This document shows positions 374 to 6,294 of a stretch of DNA of 6,393 nt, one piece after another. Both the position numbers and the translations under genes were made by a program. The notes beneath the pieces were generated by a model that did not search any database, was not told where the DNA came from, and worked only from the letters and a program-made list of their open reading frames with translations. Origin of the DNA: a virus (taxonomy: Duplodnaviria; Heunggongvirae; Uroviricota; Caudoviricetes); the IMG/VR virus record IMGVR_UViG_2576861133_000006. One strand, given 5' to 3'. Within the stretch, counting starts at the first letter, position 1, and each line of letters opens with the position of its first letter.

Positions 374-646
374 ATGGACAATAACACCATTTCTCTACAG
401 GAGTTGCTCGACAGCATTTCCAGGCTTCGGGAAGACGTGAATACCCTTACCGTCGCCTTCTCATATCTGGCATTCTCAATTCCAAGGGAACAGATGCAAT
501 CAACGCTGGCATCAATCCAGTTTGAATCATGCAATCCCAAATGGTCTCAGGAACAACAAGACTCTTTCAGGCGGCTTGCTGTATTACTGGATGAAAAATA
601 TGCTGGTAAAATTACCATTTCGGCGGACTCTTCAGAGAACCCGTAA
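374..646 (+). CDS. Hypothetical protein, 90 aa, antisense to the lysis cassette
   Basis: ORF with ATG start and strong SD (GAGGA, 6-nt spacer). Product MDNNTISLQELLDSISRLREDVNTLTVAFSYLAFSIPREQ... has no recognisable motif. The 3' end overlaps the convergent DUF1327 gene by 35 bp (612-646). Chosen over the minus-strand 68-aa ORF 334..540, which starts with TTG and lacks an SD. Confidence 0.4.
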   Translation: MDNNTISLQELLDSISRLREDVNTLTVAFSYLAFSIPREQMQSTLASIQFESCNPKWSQEQQDSFRRLAVLLDEKYAGKITISADSSENP

Positions 647-1208
647 TTATTCCCGGTAGTTTTCCTCTGTAGGTTATCAACACATCCTGCGCCTCTAAAA
701 TTACGGGGCGCTTTTCCGGCGACTGCTCATCCCCTTCACATAACCCGGCAGCAACATCCAGGAAGACCTGTCTGATGCTCCTTCTGGCTGCTGCCTCATA
801 AAACTCCAGCGCGGCACCTTCAACACGGTCCAGCGAGATGTCCAGGTCAAAAATTTCACCGTCAAAGCGTTTTTTGTCCCGTAACGCTAAAGTTACCGTA
901 ACTTTATTCTCAAAATTGCGGATCCCTTTCACAATCAACTGCGCCTCTAAAATTACGGGGCGCTTTTCCGGCGACTGCTCATCCCCTTCACATAACCCGG
1001 CAGCAACATCCAGGAAGACCTGTCTGATGCTCCTTCTGGCTGCTGCCTCATAAAACTCCAGCGCGGCACCTTCAACACGGTCCAGCGAGATGTCCAGGTC
1101 AAAAATTTCACCGTCAAAGCGTTTTTTGTCCCGTAACGCTAAAGTTACCGTAACTTTATTCTCAAAATTGCGGATCCCTTTCACAATCAGTTCATAGTTT
1201 TGAGTCAT
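612..1208 (-). CDS. DUF1327/YdfR-like lysis-cassette protein carrying an in-frame tandem duplication (198 aa; about 114 aa without the duplication)
   Basis: ATG at 1208..1206 preceded by GGAGA SD, 4 nt after the pinholin stop. The N-terminus MTQNYELIVKGIRNFENKVTVT... resembles, from memory, E. coli Qin prophage YdfR (DUF1327), which likewise lies between holin and lysozyme. Residues 7-90 are repeated as 91-174. Confidence 0.65.
   Translation of the reverse strand: MTQNYELIVKGIRNFENKVTVTLALRDKKRFDGEIFDLDISLDRVEGAALEFYEAAARRSIRQVFLDVAAGLCEGDEQSPEKRPVILEAQLIVKGIRNFENKVTVTLALRDKKRFDGEIFDLDISLDRVEGAALEFYEAAARRSIRQVFLDVAAGLCEGDEQSPEKRPVILEAQDVLITYRGKLPGIITGSLKSPPKW
687..1190. repeat. Near-perfect tandem direct duplication, 2 x 252 bp (687-938 and 939-1190), in frame within the DUF1327 gene
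   Basis: Direct comparison of the two copies: 251 of 252 positions identical. The only difference is 938 (a) versus 1190 (g), a synonymous TTG/CTG Leu change. 252 is a multiple of 3, so the frame is preserved. Confidence 0.95.
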
Positions 1209-1428: not shown

Positions 1429-1460
1429 ACCCCGTCTCCCGTTATCCGGAAGCTGACAAC

Positions 1461-1493
1461 AATAAAAAAAGCCACCAGTTAAGTACTGATGGC
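1461..1493 (-). terminator. Rho-independent terminator between the esterase gene and the pinholin gene
   Basis: Minus-strand RNA: 8-bp stem GCCAUCAG/CUGGUGGC (one G.U pair), 7-nt loop UACUUAA, then UUUUUUUAUU. Plus-strand coordinates: stem 1471-1478 and 1486-1493, A-tract 1461-1470. Confidence 0.55.
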
Positions 1494-1578
1494 TCTGATA
1501 ACTCATGCAGGCATCTCAGACGACCCACTGACACTACCGGTGAGTTTAACGATACCTTCCATTTGACTGGCTCACTTT

Positions 1579-3450
1579 TTATGATGATGCCGGTGCATTT
1601 ATCTCCAGCACCAGACTTTCTATCTCAACGCCATACGTTGCATTTTTGGTAATATCCGTCAGCGTCAGCGCATTCAGCCCCAGTGTCAGACTGTCTTTTA
1701 TGACCTGGAATGCCGGGCCAGCCACTCCATTCAGTTTCGGAGTAACCGTGGCACTGCCGGCGGTGAACACCAGCTCCAGCGTCTGCCAGTCGTTACTGTA
1801 ATTCCCGAACTCGCCCAACTTTGTGTTTCCTGCTTTCCTGTGATGCATCAGATTCAGTTTGCCGTCTGTGGTCTGGGTGAAGAACGACATCAGGAACGGG
1901 TTACCAGTCCCGGTCATCGCCACGACGTCAGGTAACGCTACATCGGTACACAGATAAATTCCCAGACCGAACTGGTTGTTGGTCAGTGCGCCTGACAGTC
2001 GAAACTTACAGCTCAGTCTGCCACCCCGTGTCAGCAGGGAGACTGCGTCATCCACCGGATGCATCAGGGACCAAGTTTTATTGCTCTGCTTGGTAACCTT
2101 AAACACACCATCTTCCAGCGCAACACTGCCGCCGGTGATGGTCCAGCCCTGCGCAGCAGCCTCTCCGGCTGTCGGCAGCAGGGAGACTGTACGAACGGAT
2201 GTGTCACCATCAGACGGCCCCGATGGAGTGTCGCCGCCGGGCGAGGGTTTGATTTCCGGTGCCTTACCACTAATGAAGGCTAAGGTGCGACCGGCTACGT
2301 TCAGAATAGCAGTTGCCATACGATCGGGAATAATGCCACGACGCGCCCATGAGCTGAAATGCGTCGGGCGATTTGATGATACCCAGTTTTTGTTCGTTCG
2401 GGATGCCGAACCGTAATAACCAGACCCGGCAATATCAGGATCTTCTGACGGGTTGTTTGTCGGTGTATTAACTCCGCTACCATCGGTCATAAAGGGAACA
2501 AAATAAATCTGCTGGGATTCTTTACCTTTATATGCACCATATACCACTTCATATTGCGTACCGTGTTCTTGTTTCCACGCGTATGTCGTGTCGCCACAAA
2601 TCCAGGGGACTGATGCCGGACTTCCACCGTGACACTGCGCCGCCAGCCCGGCAAGGTCAGCACGGAACTGCTGTACCATTGCAAGAAATGCTGCTGGCTG
2701 CTGGGCGTAACTGGCATTCGTCATATCGAATTCCCCCTGCATCCAGCATATCGCCAGCAAAACGTTTTTCGGGTTTTTCTGCAATGCTGCCTTCGTGCGG
2801 AAAAGCAGATCCTGATATAACGGCTTACCCACTCCCCAGCGAGCCGAATCCTGACTGGCCCCCGTGGACTCGCTGAATGTCCCCTCCGTGCCCTGGGTGA
2901 ATGCCGAACCACCACGACAGCATGGTACCAGCAGGATCCCCGCATTATTAGGGATATACGGAAGCAGTTTTTTGGCAATATGTAAGCCCTGTCCGACACA
3001 GCCGTACTGCCCTTTGCTCAGGTCAGCCCGGGGATGGTTAATCGTACTCATATCCTGAACATCATGCAGACAATGGTCAGCAGGAATGATGTCGTTAAAT
3101 ACGCATACTTCACCACCGGGAGTCACTGTGTTACGACGGGCCAGTTGCTTAATGCGCGGATGGGGCGCATCGTATGAATCCGGAAGCGGAAGCCCTTCAC
3201 CGTAAGCCATGGCATTGGATTGCCCGGCCAGTACGATGACGTAGTACCACTCCGGCTCAGTTGCACCACTGACGACCACATCACCTTCTGCTGCAATCGC
3301 CTGCATCAGGGTATAAGGGGTTATGGCCACCGGACTACCAAACGGCTGCCAGCCCTCTTTCAGTTTATGTGTCAGCTTTTCCGCAAGATCTGACGGCGAC
3401 GCCGCCCTGACAACATCATAGTGTTTAAATGCCATGGTTCTTTCCACCAT
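1579..3450 (-). CDS. nanS: Prophage-type sialate O-acetylesterase (NanS-p-like): N-terminal DUF1737-like region, SASA esterase core, C-terminal beta-rich domain
   Basis: 623-aa ORF. N-terminus MAFKHYDVVRAASPSDLAEKLTHKLKEGWQPFGSPVAITPYTLMQ is DUF1737-like. It is followed by VIVLAGQSNAMAYG, a GDSL/SGNH-type GQSN catalytic-serine block typical of sialic-acid-specific acetylesterases. The position upstream of the lysis genes matches NanS-p of EHEC prophages. The start may instead be the ATG at 3435 (MAFKHY...), which has a slightly better upstream purine-rich tract. Confidence 0.75.
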   Translation of the reverse strand: MVERTMAFKHYDVVRAASPSDLAEKLTHKLKEGWQPFGSPVAITPYTLMQAIAAEGDVVVSGATEPEWYYVIVLAGQSNAMAYGEGLPLPDSYDAPHPRIKQLARRNTVTPGGEVCVFNDIIPADHCLHDVQDMSTINHPRADLSKGQYGCVGQGLHIAKKLLPYIPNNAGILLVPCCRGGSAFTQGTEGTFSESTGASQDSARWGVGKPLYQDLLFRTKAALQKNPKNVLLAICWMQGEFDMTNASYAQQPAAFLAMVQQFRADLAGLAAQCHGGSPASVPWICGDTTYAWKQEHGTQYEVVYGAYKGKESQQIYFVPFMTDGSGVNTPTNNPSEDPDIAGSGYYGSASRTNKNWVSSNRPTHFSSWARRGIIPDRMATAILNVAGRTLAFISGKAPEIKPSPGGDTPSGPSDGDTSVRTVSLLPTAGEAAAQGWTITGGSVALEDGVFKVTKQSNKTWSLMHPVDDAVSLLTRGGRLSCKFRLSGALTNNQFGLGIYLCTDVALPDVVAMTGTGNPFLMSFFTQTTDGKLNLMHHRKAGNTKLGEFGNYSNDWQTLELVFTAGSATVTPKLNGVAGPAFQVIKDSLTLGLNALTLTDITKNATYGVEIESLVLEINAPASS

Positions 3451-3628
3451 CTGAAAAATGATTCTTTAAAATACCTGACATGTAATACAGAAAAAACACA
3501 AAACCATACCTTAAATAAAAACCTCATCATCAAGCAGATATGCATGGATAAACTACAAGACGAGATATAAACCACCCTGCATTTAAATAAACAATAAACA
3601 ACATCAGAAAAATAATTCTGCTCTATGG

Positions 3629-3655
3629 TTTACAATCAAAAATATCATTTATACT
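3629..3655 (+). promoter_or_regulatory. Candidate sigma70-type promoter for the 111-aa ORF
   Basis: TTTACA (3629-3634), 15-bp spacer, TATACT (3650-3655), in a very AT-rich tract about 40 nt upstream of the ATG at 3696, which has an AAGGA SD. The spacer is shorter than optimal, so this is weak. Confidence 0.25.
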
Positions 3656-3695
3656 TTTCAGAACATCACCAGCAAGGCATAAACAAGGAAACTAA

Positions 3696-4031
3696 ATGAA
3701 GTGGATTGTGATTGATACAGTTATCCAGCCATCATGCGGAATATCTTTTTCAGTCATATGGAGTAAAATAAAATTAATAATCTGGTATCAATCGGATGCT
3801 TTCTTACCTCCTGAAAGTATATTTACACTGACTCACACAGGCATCATGCTCAATAACAAAGTGCTACCTGTAACCATTTACAACGTAGTACCATTCAATA
3901 AAACATTCTGGAATTTAATCAAAAACAGCCAGGAATGCCCTACAAATACAGATAACGTATTGAATGAATGCTTTAATAACCGTTGCACTCTGCAAATATG
4001 TCCTTATGGACTAAAACAACAAAGTCCATAA
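3696..4031 (+). CDS. Hypothetical protein, 111 aa, AT-rich cargo gene opposite to late transcription
   Basis: ATG with AAGGA SD 6 nt upstream. Very AT-rich coding sequence with six ATA codons. Product [32 protein letters not shown]... has four Cys in the last 31 residues and no recognisable motif. Confidence 0.35.
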
Positions 4032-4049
4032 GGAGTTTACTCACATCTG

Positions 4050-4087
4050 ACAAAATCAATATAAACAGCCCCTCCGGAGAGGGGCTG
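4050..4087 (-). terminator. GC-rich hairpin followed by a U-rich tract on the minus strand (putative intrinsic terminator)
   Basis: 9-bp perfect stem CAGCCCCTC(4066-4074)/GAGGGGCTG(4079-4087) with loop CGGA. The minus-strand transcript continues UUUAUAUUGAUUUUGU; on the plus strand the hairpin is followed by GAGAGUGGCG, with no U-tract. It lies 35 nt past the stop of the 111-aa ORF. Confidence 0.4.
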
Positions 4088-4478
4088 GAGAGTGGCGCTA
4101 TGTGCCATTGCATGGTGCCGGGTGCCTCCCGGTGAATTCAGTACCAGCACCTGAATCCGCGATTATCCCATATACCTACTCGCTGATTGCCCCTCCGCAC
4201 AGGGGGATTCACCATGCCAGTTTCTTTTAACAAACTCCCCGCAAACCAGACAACAATCAACCGCCTGAATTGTGAAGTATTTAAAAATTTCTCCCGCTAA
4301 CTGATACCCGGCTAACAGTCTGGCGTTTTCTTTTTCAGCAACGGGAAAGCAACAACCACCACACCCGCCACCAGCACACCGTCAGCCAGCACTGACATTA
4401 TCCGGCTGCAGCAATGCCATTCACAAAAACAGTAAGCAATCACTTTTTACCGTAACCGGTGATAATCCAGATATGTAT

Positions 4479-4805
4479 CTACCCCAGATGAGTAATCCGA
4501 AGTTCATCCATACCACAGGTCCTGGCTATTCTGTTGTACTCCTGAACAAGAGTAAATAATTCTGAATTAGCCACCATGAACTCATCGCAAACCCTCTGTA
4601 TAGCATCACTATTCAGAATAATAACGTCTCTTCCCGAAAGACGATCAGGAGTACAGAACAAAACTGTCAAACGGCTGAAGGCCTTTGCTCGTGCTGCATT
4701 GACTATATCAATACGCTGCCTAAGGATGAAACACCCCGACGCCTCATCAATATTCACTCTACCCACACCATATGAATGATAAATATTTAATGCTGAAAAA
4801 ACCAT
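4479..4805 (-). CDS. Hypothetical protein, 108 aa from ATG at 4805 (118 aa if the GTG at 4835 is used)
   Basis: Minus-strand ORF in the cargo slot. Product MVFSALNIYHSYGVGRVNIDEASGCFILRQRIDIVNAARAKAFSRLTVLFCTPDRLSGRDVIILNSDAIQRVCDEFMVANSELFTLVQEYNRIARTCGMDELRITHLG. It contains 3 AGA, 3 AGG and 3 ATA codons. No convincing SD before either start and no recognised family. Confidence 0.4.
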   Translation of the reverse strand: MVFSALNIYHSYGVGRVNIDEASGCFILRQRIDIVNAARAKAFSRLTVLFCTPDRLSGRDVIILNSDAIQRVCDEFMVANSELFTLVQEYNRIARTCGMDELRITHLG

Positions 4806-4942
4806 TAGACCGTATAACAAACACTCAATCAACACTTAACAGAACTTTTATTTTTGACAAACATATAATATTTTCAACAATATCCTGAGCCAGGTATATT
4901 TCAGTATAAGGCTCTGCCGGAAGGAATCTGGAAGAATGAATA

Positions 4943-5019
4943 TGGCGCGCTGTACTGGATTCGAACCAGTGACCGATTGCTTAGAAGGCAATTGCTCTGT
5001 CCGGCTGAGCTAACAACGC
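4943..5019 (-). tRNA. tRNA-Arg, anticodon UCU, 77 nt (phage argO/argU-like)
   Basis: Minus-strand sequence GCGTTGTTAGCTCAGCCGGACAGAGCAATTGCCTTCTAAGCAATCGGTCACTGGTTCGAATCCAGTACAGCGCGCCA. Acceptor stem GCGTTGT/ACAGCGC (one G.U), D stem GCTC/GAGC, anticodon stem ATTGC/GCAAT with loop CTTCTAA, T arm ACTGG-TTCGAAT-CCAGT, encoded CCA. Confidence 0.9.
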
Positions 5020-5119
5020 TGAATACCGATAATGGACCGCCATCGGGGACCCGCCCCCGCACCAACAACCCTGTTATCGTGTCGTCTGCTCTTCCTGATA
5101 AGCTAATGGCGGTTTGTGA

Positions 5120-5195
5120 TGGTGGCCCTTGCTGGATTTGAACCAGCGACCTGGCGATTATGAGTCGCTCGCTCTCACCACTGAGCTAAAGGGCC
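5120..5195 (-). tRNA. tRNA with CAU anticodon, 76 nt; most likely tRNA-Ile2 (lysidine type, ileX/ileZ-like) rather than tRNA-Met
   Basis: Minus-strand sequence GGCCCTTTAGCTCAGTGGTGAGAGCGAGCGACTCATAATCGCCAGGTCGCTGGTTCAAATCCAGCAAGGGCCACCA. Perfect acceptor stem GGCCCTT/AAGGGCC, anticodon loop CTCATAA, T arm GCTGG-TTCAAAT-CCAGC, encoded CCA. Very close to E. coli ileX as I recall it. Confidence 0.9.
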
Positions 5196-5244: not shown

Positions 5245-6294
5245 TCAAACGATTAAACCCTGAACTTCCCTGACTGTCTGCTCAAAACGTCCGGTCTCCA
5301 GCTCAACGCCAATCGCACGACGCCCGAGCGCCAGTGCCGCTTTTACCGTTGAACCTGAGCCCATAAAAAAATCTGCAACCAGGTCACCCGGACGACTGCT
5401 TGCGCTGATTATCTGCTGCAGCATTTCTGCCGGTTTTTCGCACGGATGTTTCCCGGGATAGAACTGCACCGGTTTATGTGTCCACACATCCGTGTACGGC
5501 ACCTGCGCCGTCACACCAAAATACCGCCGCAGATGCTTATATTCACTCTGCAGCTCCACATACTGCCGGTTCAGTGACGTATACGTATCCACCAGCTGGT
5601 GGTGGGGCTTTTCCAGTTCACCGCGCTGATGTTTCTCTTCTGCCACCCGGGCAAACAGCGACTGTAATTTCAGATAATCGCTTTCGTTCGGTAGCTGCCA
5701 CTGACTGGCACTGAACCAGTGCGACACCATGTTTTTCTTTCCTGTGGCATCTGCAATCTGTTTTGCCGTTATCCCCAGGGCCGCGCGCGCATCACGAAAG
5801 TAAGAAATCAGCGGGGCCATCACATGCTGTTTCAGTGCACTGCCCTTCGCCGCATACCCGGCATCTTTCGGACGATACGGCCCCTGATAATGTTCCGCGA
5901 ACAGAATGCGCTCTGTGGCGGGGAAATACGCCCGCAGGCTTTCCTTGTTGCATCCGTTCCAGCGTCCGGACGGCTTCGCCCAGATAATATGGTTCAGCAC
6001 ACTGAAGCGTTCACGCATCATGATTTCGATATCAGATGCCAGGCGATGACCACAGAACAGGTAAAGACTTCCGGCAGGTTTCAGCACCCGCCAGAACTGC
6101 GCCAGACACTGGTCCAGCCACTTCAGGTAATCATCGTCGCCCTTCCACTGGTTATCCCAGCCCTCAGGCTTCACTTTAAAGTACGGCGGGTCCGTGACTA
6201 TCAGGTCAACAGAATTTTCGGGTAACGACCGGATAAATTCCAGGCAGTCGGCGTTGATTAACTCACAACTGGATATTTTTACAGTATTAGCCAT
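5245..6294 (-). CDS. DNA methyltransferase, beta-class amino-MTase (N6-adenine or N4-cytosine), 349 aa
   Basis: DPPY catalytic motif near the N-terminus (LIVTDPPYF) and FxGxG SAM-binding motif near the C-terminus (DFFMGSGST). The order motif IV then motif I defines the beta class. In-frame stops immediately upstream of the ATG at 6294 fix the start. No restriction endonuclease partner is present in the window. Confidence 0.85.
   Translation of the reverse strand: MANTVKISSCELINADCLEFIRSLPENSVDLIVTDPPYFKVKPEGWDNQWKGDDDYLKWLDQCLAQFWRVLKPAGSLYLFCGHRLASDIEIMMRERFSVLNHIIWAKPSGRWNGCNKESLRAYFPATERILFAEHYQGPYRPKDAGYAAKGSALKQHVMAPLISYFRDARAALGITAKQIADATGKKNMVSHWFSASQWQLPNESDYLKLQSLFARVAEEKHQRGELEKPHHQLVDTYTSLNRQYVELQSEYKHLRRYFGVTAQVPYTDVWTHKPVQFYPGKHPCEKPAEMLQQIISASSRPGDLVADFFMGSGSTVKAALALGRRAIGVELETGRFEQTVREVQGLIV

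Follow-up and report, generated by a model that had tools for sequence, protein, structure and literature searches.

Identification of iraL, an STnc100-family sRNA and the conserved small gene orf92 in the cargo slot of a lambdoid prophage

A related system already described is the moron slot of the Stx phages, where the moron coding sequences lie downstream of pR' and are followed by the convergent sRNAs EcOnc27 and EcOnc02/AsxR, and then by a conserved phage ORF (Tree et al. 2014, PMC4104026). Phage 933W carries, in succession, Q, pR', ileZ-argN-argO, stxA2-stxB2, a gap of 486 bp and the SASA esterase; within this gap an STnc100 copy is found 75 nt past stxB2 (207.7 bits, Rfam), with AsxR directly next to it on the opposite strand. 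Shigella phage 75/02 shows the order stx1AB, STnc100, AgvB (opposite strand) and esterase. In published work, the STnc100 downstream of stx2B is the Hfq-bound EcOnc27/sRNA103, which is related to the PasD sRNAs; its nature as an Hfq-bound RNA in EHEC was reported by Tree et al. (2014, PMC4104026). Overexpression of EcOnc27 in EDL933 raises the fimZ and espA transcripts, and a pairing between EcOnc27 and stxB has been proposed in the literature as a hypothesis. A second related system is the iraL locus in the potB prophage island of E. coli CFT073. CFT073 IraL binds RssB and stabilises RpoS (Hryckowian et al. [quoted passage not shown] Isolates from the urinary tract and from prostatitis, as well as Shigella, were found to have iraL more often than commensals do, and the ST131 strain JJ1886 has a second copy with a point mutation in the -35, the effect of which is not established (PMC4045071). 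The K-12 protein IraM, encoded next to prophage e14, belongs to the same NF007393 family and has the same target RssB (PMC4045071). In addition, lambdoid phages such as JLK-2012 have a tciA-tciB cassette, in which an intact TciB of 50-54 aa with two hydrophobic helices is encoded after the TerB-like tciA; our search found no relevant literature on TciB or DUF3927.

Here we present an analysis of positions 3451..4942 in a window of 6,393 nucleotides, that is, the whole stretch of DNA analysed (IMG/VR record IMGVR_UViG_2576861133_000006). The window is the late region of a lambdoid prophage, given against the direction of late transcription, and the order on its minus strand is methyltransferase, the CAT tRNA, tRNA-Arg(TCT), the interval 4942..3451, esterase, a P21-type holin and a duplicated DUF1327. 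The interval is limited exactly by the end of tRNA-Arg(TCT) at 4943 and the start of the esterase at 3450 (-). Table 1 lists the features with their coordinates.

Table 1. Features of the cargo slot and its flanks, ordered by position in the window
Feature	Position	Strand	Evidence or remark
nanS-p-type esterase, 623 aa, DUF1737 + SASA + DUF6645; downstream slot boundary	1579..3450	-	aligns to 933W esterase
iraL promoter and 5' UTR	3629..3695	+	-35-like TTTACA 3629..3634; -10 TATACT 3650..3655; start A3663
iraL, RssB anti-adaptor of the IraM/IraL/RssC family, 111 aa	3696..4031	+	NCBIfam NF007393; CFT073 identity
Perfect 12-bp hairpin across the iraL stop codon	4001..4034	+	putative 3'-end structure of iraL mRNA
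STnc100-family sRNA (RF02076), equivalent to EcOnc27/sRNA103 of EHEC, related to PasD	4057..4246	-	cmscan
Intrinsic terminator hairpin of STnc100	4066..4087	-	9 pairs, 7 G-C, then TTTATATTGATTTTG
tciB', 5'-truncated ORF for a DUF3927/TciB-like small membrane protein, 43 codons, GTG start	4312..4443	-	Pfam; phrog_1470
orf92, 92 aa, acidic (pI 5.7), predicted helical hairpin, phrog_2873	4757..4479	-	GTG start 4757
tRNA-Arg (anticodon TCT), argO counterpart in 933W; upstream slot boundary	4943..5019	-	ARAGORN; Rfam tRNA 68 bits
argN-equivalent middle tRNA, corrupted remnant	5020..5119	-	CFT073 has tRNA-Arg at the equivalent site
tRNA, CAT anticodon, ileZ-type	5120..5195	-	PGAP name tRNA-Ile
N6/N4 DNA methyltransferase, upstream of the tRNAs	6294..5245	-	

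The alignment with phage 933W gives identities of 86% in the tRNA block, 70% in part of the 486-bp gap, 85% at the esterase start and 93% in the holin. As in the Stx-phage slot, phage tRNAs and Q lie upstream, the latter about 1.7 kb from the tRNAs in a genome with an identical slot, and the nanS-p esterase and lysis genes lie downstream. The original prediction had placed here a moron slot equivalent to that of stx, between the phage tRNAs and nanS-p, and the alignment of the tRNA block, the STnc100 core and the esterase start confirms that the interval occupies the stxAB position of 933W. Its further claim of a compositionally foreign interval also holds, with the G+C content falling from 0.52-0.56 in the flanks to 0.39-0.50 between 4050 and 4950 and to 0.31-0.35 between 3451 and 4050. 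The two convergent ORFs it named, at 3696..4031 (+) and 4479..4805 (-), are present; of the view that both are of unknown function only the half concerning the minus-strand ORF stands, which is uncharacterised, whereas the plus-strand ORF is IraL. Between them it had seen an ORF-poor core of 447 bp with hairpins and micro-ORFs, and this we correct, for the core is not anonymous but holds the DUF3927 ORF of 43 codons (4443..4312) and a full-length STnc100 (4246..4057). Compared with the slot of Stx phages 933W and Sp5 (PMC4104026), the locus has the same succession of phage tRNAs, cargo coding sequences, STnc100/EcOnc27, a convergent element and the nanS-p esterase, but the cargo is orf92 and tciB' instead of stxAB, and the convergent partner is the protein gene iraL instead of the anti-sRNAs AsxR and AgvB of 51-60 nt. 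Covariance models of AsxR (RF02703) and AgvB (RF02702) give no hit at E<=1 anywhere in the window, while both are found in Stx phages.

The slot DNA is 97.5% identical to CFT073 over 1.9 kb, and 100% identical to ST131 genomes. The flanking order of tRNAs, orf92 DNA, DUF3927, STnc100 and iraL is the same at the CFT073 iraL locus (PMC4045071). The two differ in that in CFT073 the tRNAs number three and the esterase is truncated, while the window has a full-length esterase and a corrupted middle tRNA, in which about 40 central bases differ from CFT073 and no tRNA is detected by ARAGORN or Rfam. The plus-strand ORF matches the NCBIfam model NF007393 "anti-adapter protein IraM" with 162 bits (cutoff 121) over residues 1-110, and all 111 of its 111 residues are identical to those of CFT073 IraL; indeed WP_000871291.1 is the accession both of CFT073 IraL and of the protein from a genome that matches the window slot at 100% identity. 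By this identity the ORF is IraL. Its identity to K-12 IraM is 62% over 107 residues; outside the coding sequence there is no DNA similarity to the K-12 gene, which has another promoter and context, with no STnc100 nearby.

The mRNA 5' end of iraL has the same sequence as in CFT073, with the published 5'RACE sequence matching window positions 3663..3694 at 31 of 32 bases. The promoter hexamers were placed by reading the sequence, TATACT being 7 bases upstream of the start and TTTACA 15 bases further up. The promoter/5' UTR region is 98% identical to that of CFT073, from which it differs by three substitutions, T->A at 3635, G->A at 3662 and C->T at 3693, the first of them adjoining the -35-like hexamer. 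Because of this T->A change, and of the -35 mutation noted for JJ1886 in PMC4045071, we consider the expression of the window copy likely only. [quoted passage not shown] Between the ends of the convergent iraL and STnc100 transcripts there is a distance of 25 nt. For K-12 iraM, induction goes through PhoPQ. Upstream of iraL in the window, a PhoP-box-like repeat at 3584..3600 (one match, with one mismatch) was equalled in 21 of 200 shuffled sequences and hence is not taken as evidence.

On the minus strand, STnc100 is detected by cmscan with 132.4 bits (gathering score 47, E 7e-30) over model positions 1-206 of 206. This full-length match, the conserved stems and the location upstream of a sialate esterase gene agree with what is described for STnc100 (RF02076) and the PasD sRNAs (Zhu, Shabalina and Storz 2026 preprint), and as in Stx phages the RNA faces a convergent partner and is situated between the moron coding sequences and the nanS-p esterase. 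Identity to the 933W copy is about 70%. When eight copies taken from different prophages are aligned, the outer stem of 8 pairs (GCATGGTG/CACCATGC) has 7 invariant pairs, the two main internal hairpins are kept, the central segment varies, and compensatory changes occur at 7 pairs, the majority of them within the terminator and the variable hairpin. The lineages differ in the central variable region and in the 3' part after 4109. It is at this position, the 3' end of the outer stem, that the homology blocks with mEp460_ev081, phage 75/02 and 933W stop, as well as a 28-nt perfect match in a sister lineage (L007). Because homology blocks repeatedly end at 4109, the few loci compared suggest that the conserved STnc100 core is a recombination junction for the downstream module. 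Two prophages have two STnc100 copies, each closing its own cargo block. A 42-codon ORF at 4102..4230 (+), annotated by PGAP as a partial pseudogene, is antisense within STnc100 and was judged spurious.

The ORF upstream of STnc100, tciB', matches Pfam DUF3927 (PF13064) with 93.2 bits (E 9.6e-27) and the PHROG "TciB-like". Together with the following STnc100, the 3' two-thirds of tciB are 92.6% identical to the cassette of JLK-2012; in tciB, the DNA match to this phage begins no earlier than 4409. When aligned with intact TciB, the first membrane helix of the product is found to be replaced by MIAYCFCEWHCC, which are unrelated residues. Moreover, tciA is absent from the window, where a full-length, two-helix TciB following tciA is not found, and in the sister lineage L007 the equivalent of the tciB remnant has indels disrupting the frame. 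We read tciB' as a truncated relic, the product of which may or may not still be made.

For the minus-strand cargo gene orf92, the original prediction had taken ATG 4805 as the start. The start is most likely GTG 4757, giving 92 aa, and this reading of the gene as 4757..4479 is best because all homologues begin at this position, with a GTG start in all three lineages compared, because the equivalent start in one lineage (L022) has an AGGAG Shine-Dalgarno sequence, and because the indels upstream are not multiples of three. An N-terminal extension from ATG 4805 or GTG 4835 was rejected as coding on the strength of these upstream indels and of the distant homologues, which are without it. Across three lineage pairs with a protein identity of 57-62%, dN/dS is 0.21-0.32 in frame versus 0.87-1.42 in the other two frames, the lineages being only 67% identical at the DNA level. 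The substitution pattern indicates that orf92 is a real gene under purifying selection. RefSeq/PGAP has no gene at orf92 in any fully matching place listed (29 of the 30 sampled), nor at the identical locus. A sigma-70-like pair, TTGATT-17 nt-TCTAAT (4832..4804), lies upstream and is partly conserved in another lineage (L021); its -10 is non-canonical and we do not claim it as a promoter.

For orf92, the profile searches gave only phrog_2873, a family of functionally uncharacterised phage proteins (E 1.2e-69, profile positions 1-108 of 108), and structure prediction led to no informative match. This very small family comprises 23 clusters in a search of 5.8 billion proteins and 20 representatives in a search of 1.8 billion representatives. 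There is no match in Pfam, NCBIfam, PADLOC or the PDB sequence profiles, among which GapR/UPF0335 is the best PDB hit at a non-significant E of 0.054. The AF2 model is a helical hairpin with a pLDDT of 88.6; Foldseek finds no match to it in BFVD and PDB at E<=0.001, and the top PDB matches, EmrA hairpins and prefoldin beta, share common topology only. Gene context is the only functional clue to orf92. Fuller prophages carry, one after the other, Q, methyltransferase, a YdeO/GadX-like AraC regulator, orf92, TerB-like TciA, DUF3927 TciB and holin, and a relative with 40% identity lies about 1 kb downstream of Q. A distant and doubtful relative in a Mu-like baseplate region (P0033, 21% identity) was left out of the synteny argument. 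Our best guess, which is speculative, is that orf92 encodes a small protein-binding modulator working with the neighbouring regulator or with the TerB/TciB genes.

Based on these results, we hold it to be highly probable that the interval is the moron region in a CFT073 potB/ST131-type lambdoid prophage, with two compartments around a backbone sRNA and with lysogenic conversion by IraL. The region is located downstream of Q, the DNA methyltransferase and the phage tRNAs, and its description as two compartments draws on a handful of loci and not on a census. Compartment A, at the stxAB site of Stx phages, consists of orf92 and the 5'-truncated tciB, the remainder of a wider cassette of a YdeO-like regulator, orf92, tciA (TerB-like) and tciB (DUF3927). 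In the direction of late transcription it is followed by STnc100 with its intrinsic terminator; this RNA most likely works as an sRNA dependent on Hfq and also terminates the cargo transcript. Compartment B, on the opposite strand and at the AsxR/AgvB site of Stx phages, holds iraL, which has a putative sigma-70 promoter of its own. What is established as the function of this region is the lysogenic conversion of the host stress response via IraL, in which the delivery of sigma-S to ClpXP is blocked and RpoS goes up in log phase; this has been shown for the identical CFT073 protein and is expected for the window copy.

Two other explanations have been weighed against it. According to the original prediction, the two ORFs and the structured core could build an undescribed system for virulence, defence or anti-defence. 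The classic moron position, the foreign composition and an orf92 with neither known function nor informative structural match speak in its favour, but one of the ORFs is IraL and the core is STnc100, both known, and the convergent layout had been reported before by Tree et al. (2014, PMC4104026). None of the four ORFs matches a protein of any defence system (PADLOC, E<=0.1). The parts also occur independently: of the 5426 complete genomes of E. coli, 1446 have the iraL segment, 1186 the orf92 DNA and 863 the full slot (at least 80% coverage), the 100% slot matches listed including strains labelled O25b:H4 and ST131. Phage mEp460_ev081 has orf92, tciB' and STnc100 but not iraL, while vB_EcoS-640R1 has iraL and two STnc100 copies but not orf92. 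From these counts and from the phages lacking one or the other part, we therefore conclude that the parts are separable cargo units, not one system, and we regard a new system as very improbable. It is somewhat less improbable, though still unlikely, that the interval is mainly decayed DNA in which only iraL matters, orf92 and tciB' being relics and STnc100 just a terminator. Signs of degradation are indeed seen in the missing tciA, in a tciB without its first membrane helix and with frame-disrupting indels in the sister lineage, in the corrupted argN, and in the lack of a PGAP gene at orf92. Decay does not extend to orf92, which is intact with 90-92 of 92 residues in CFT073, mEp460 and ST131 (90/92 each in the first two), keeps a dN/dS of 0.21-0.32 across the diverged lineages, and belongs to a family reaching members of 32-40% identity in the same phage position; nor does it extend to STnc100, which keeps all conserved stems and has an Hfq-bound counterpart in EHEC. 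Of the two convergent ORFs, then, iraL matches a well-characterised protein and orf92 does not, and the picture of a degraded remnant fits tciA, tciB and argN and fails for orf92.

With a probability that is low but higher than for either of these, orf92 would be the first gene of an unstudied but conserved lambdoid cargo cassette (YdeO-like regulator, orf92, TerB-like TciA and DUF3927 TciB) with a function of its own, and the strand-opposed compartment after STnc100 would be a dedicated "anti-regulator" site. One possibility under such a cassette is that the helical hairpin of orf92 modulates a host or phage regulator. The pairs at the anti-regulator site would be AsxR against FnrS, AgvB against GcvB and IraL against RssB.

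Returning to the moron region of the CFT073 potB/ST131 type, the interval is a cargo region already known from E. coli CFT073, and the sRNA and the overall architecture have been described before. For this ExPEC/ST131 prophage, which is very common, the content of the cargo slot is in this way explained with no toxin substitute or new system. STnc100 appears to mark the point at which downstream cargo is exchanged between prophages, as the homology blocks end at 4109. The remaining novelty is orf92, one small unstudied conserved gene family, which is missing from the RefSeq annotation at the matching places checked. The one proven function of the interval is that of IraL, by which RpoS is raised during growth and the general stress response undergoes lysogenic conversion, and the ST131-type iraL promoter differs from that of CFT073 beside the -35-like hexamer, which bears on the expression of this copy.

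The homology to mEp460_ev081, to the Shigella phage 75/02, to 933W and to the locus L007, which are unrelated prophages, stops precisely at base 4109, where the conserved outer stem of the sRNA STnc100 has its 3' end. As several unrelated prophages lose homology at that very base, the alignments suggest a recurrent recombination junction. In addition, some prophages have two cargo blocks stacked in the slot, as at L007 1810..5839 and at L001 (another prophage locus) 4163..4820, with one copy of STnc100 closing each block; the contents of the L007 blocks are listed in the table together with the features of the window. In identical genomes PGAP places a partial "hypothetical protein" pseudogene at 4102..4230 of the plus strand, antisense within STnc100; this annotation is probably spurious.

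Features of the window and of the L007 cargo blocks
Feature	Coordinates	Strand	Remark
DUF1327/YdfR-family ORF	612..1208	-	198 aa
Tandem repeat	687..1189		exact, 252 bp, 2.0 copies, 100% match
Likely holin start	1428		Met; product 71 aa
Esterase-holin gap	1429..1578		150 bp, esterase stop codon to likely holin start
PhoP-box-like direct repeat TGTTTAttgttTATTTA	3584..3600	-	one-mismatch match
Promoter substitution	3635		T->A relative to CFT073
Inverted repeat	4001..4034		perfect, 12 bp, across iraL stop codon
PGAP pseudogene	4102..4230	+	partial
End of shared homology	4109		3' end of STnc100 outer stem
orf92	4479..4757	-	
argN equivalent (middle phage tRNA)	5020..5119		corrupted
L007 cargo block 1			TolA-like gene, STnc100
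L007 cargo block 2			YdeO-like regulator, IS3-family insertion, orf92, STnc100

Upstream of iraL, one of the differences from CFT073 is a promoter substitution directly adjoining the -35-like hexamer; it may be the same as the -35 mutation that iraL2 is reported to carry in JJ1886, an ST131 strain. The PhoP-box-like repeat is located 63-79 bp upstream of the transcription start, and it is a weak match, since it carries one mismatch and 21 of 200 shuffled sequences have at least one such match as well. At the other end of the gene, the 3' ends of iraL and STnc100 are convergent with only 25 nt between them, so that the two transcripts could interfere with each other.

Outside the slot, the 198-aa ORF is a DUF1327/YdfR-family gene doubled by the tandem duplication. 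The window is not in one collinear piece in any of the 12 complete E. coli genomes listed as its best matches, and therefore the duplication is either rare or else an assembly artefact; the top-matching genome holds the window in two pieces, with a span about 255 bp shorter. The argN equivalent is intact in CFT073 and 933W, whereas here about 40 central bases are unlike CFT073, and neither ARAGORN nor Rfam finds a tRNA in this interval. As for the gap before the likely holin gene, PasA and PasC, for which Rfam has no model, are described as adjoining holin-lysozyme genes (Pas-sRNA preprint, Zhu, Shabalina and Storz 2026).

The 92-aa ORF orf92 is under purifying selection and its DNA is carried by 1186 genomes, while PGAP annotates it at none of the fully matching RefSeq places listed (29 of 30 sampled); its absence from the annotation is a systematic gap. 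In four other prophage loci, L020, L021, L022 and L023, the same slot has YdeO/GadX-like AraC regulators directly upstream of orf92 relatives. With these regulators and IraL all occupying the slot, its cargo, as the gene content suggests, is often aimed at the acid and general stress network of the host.
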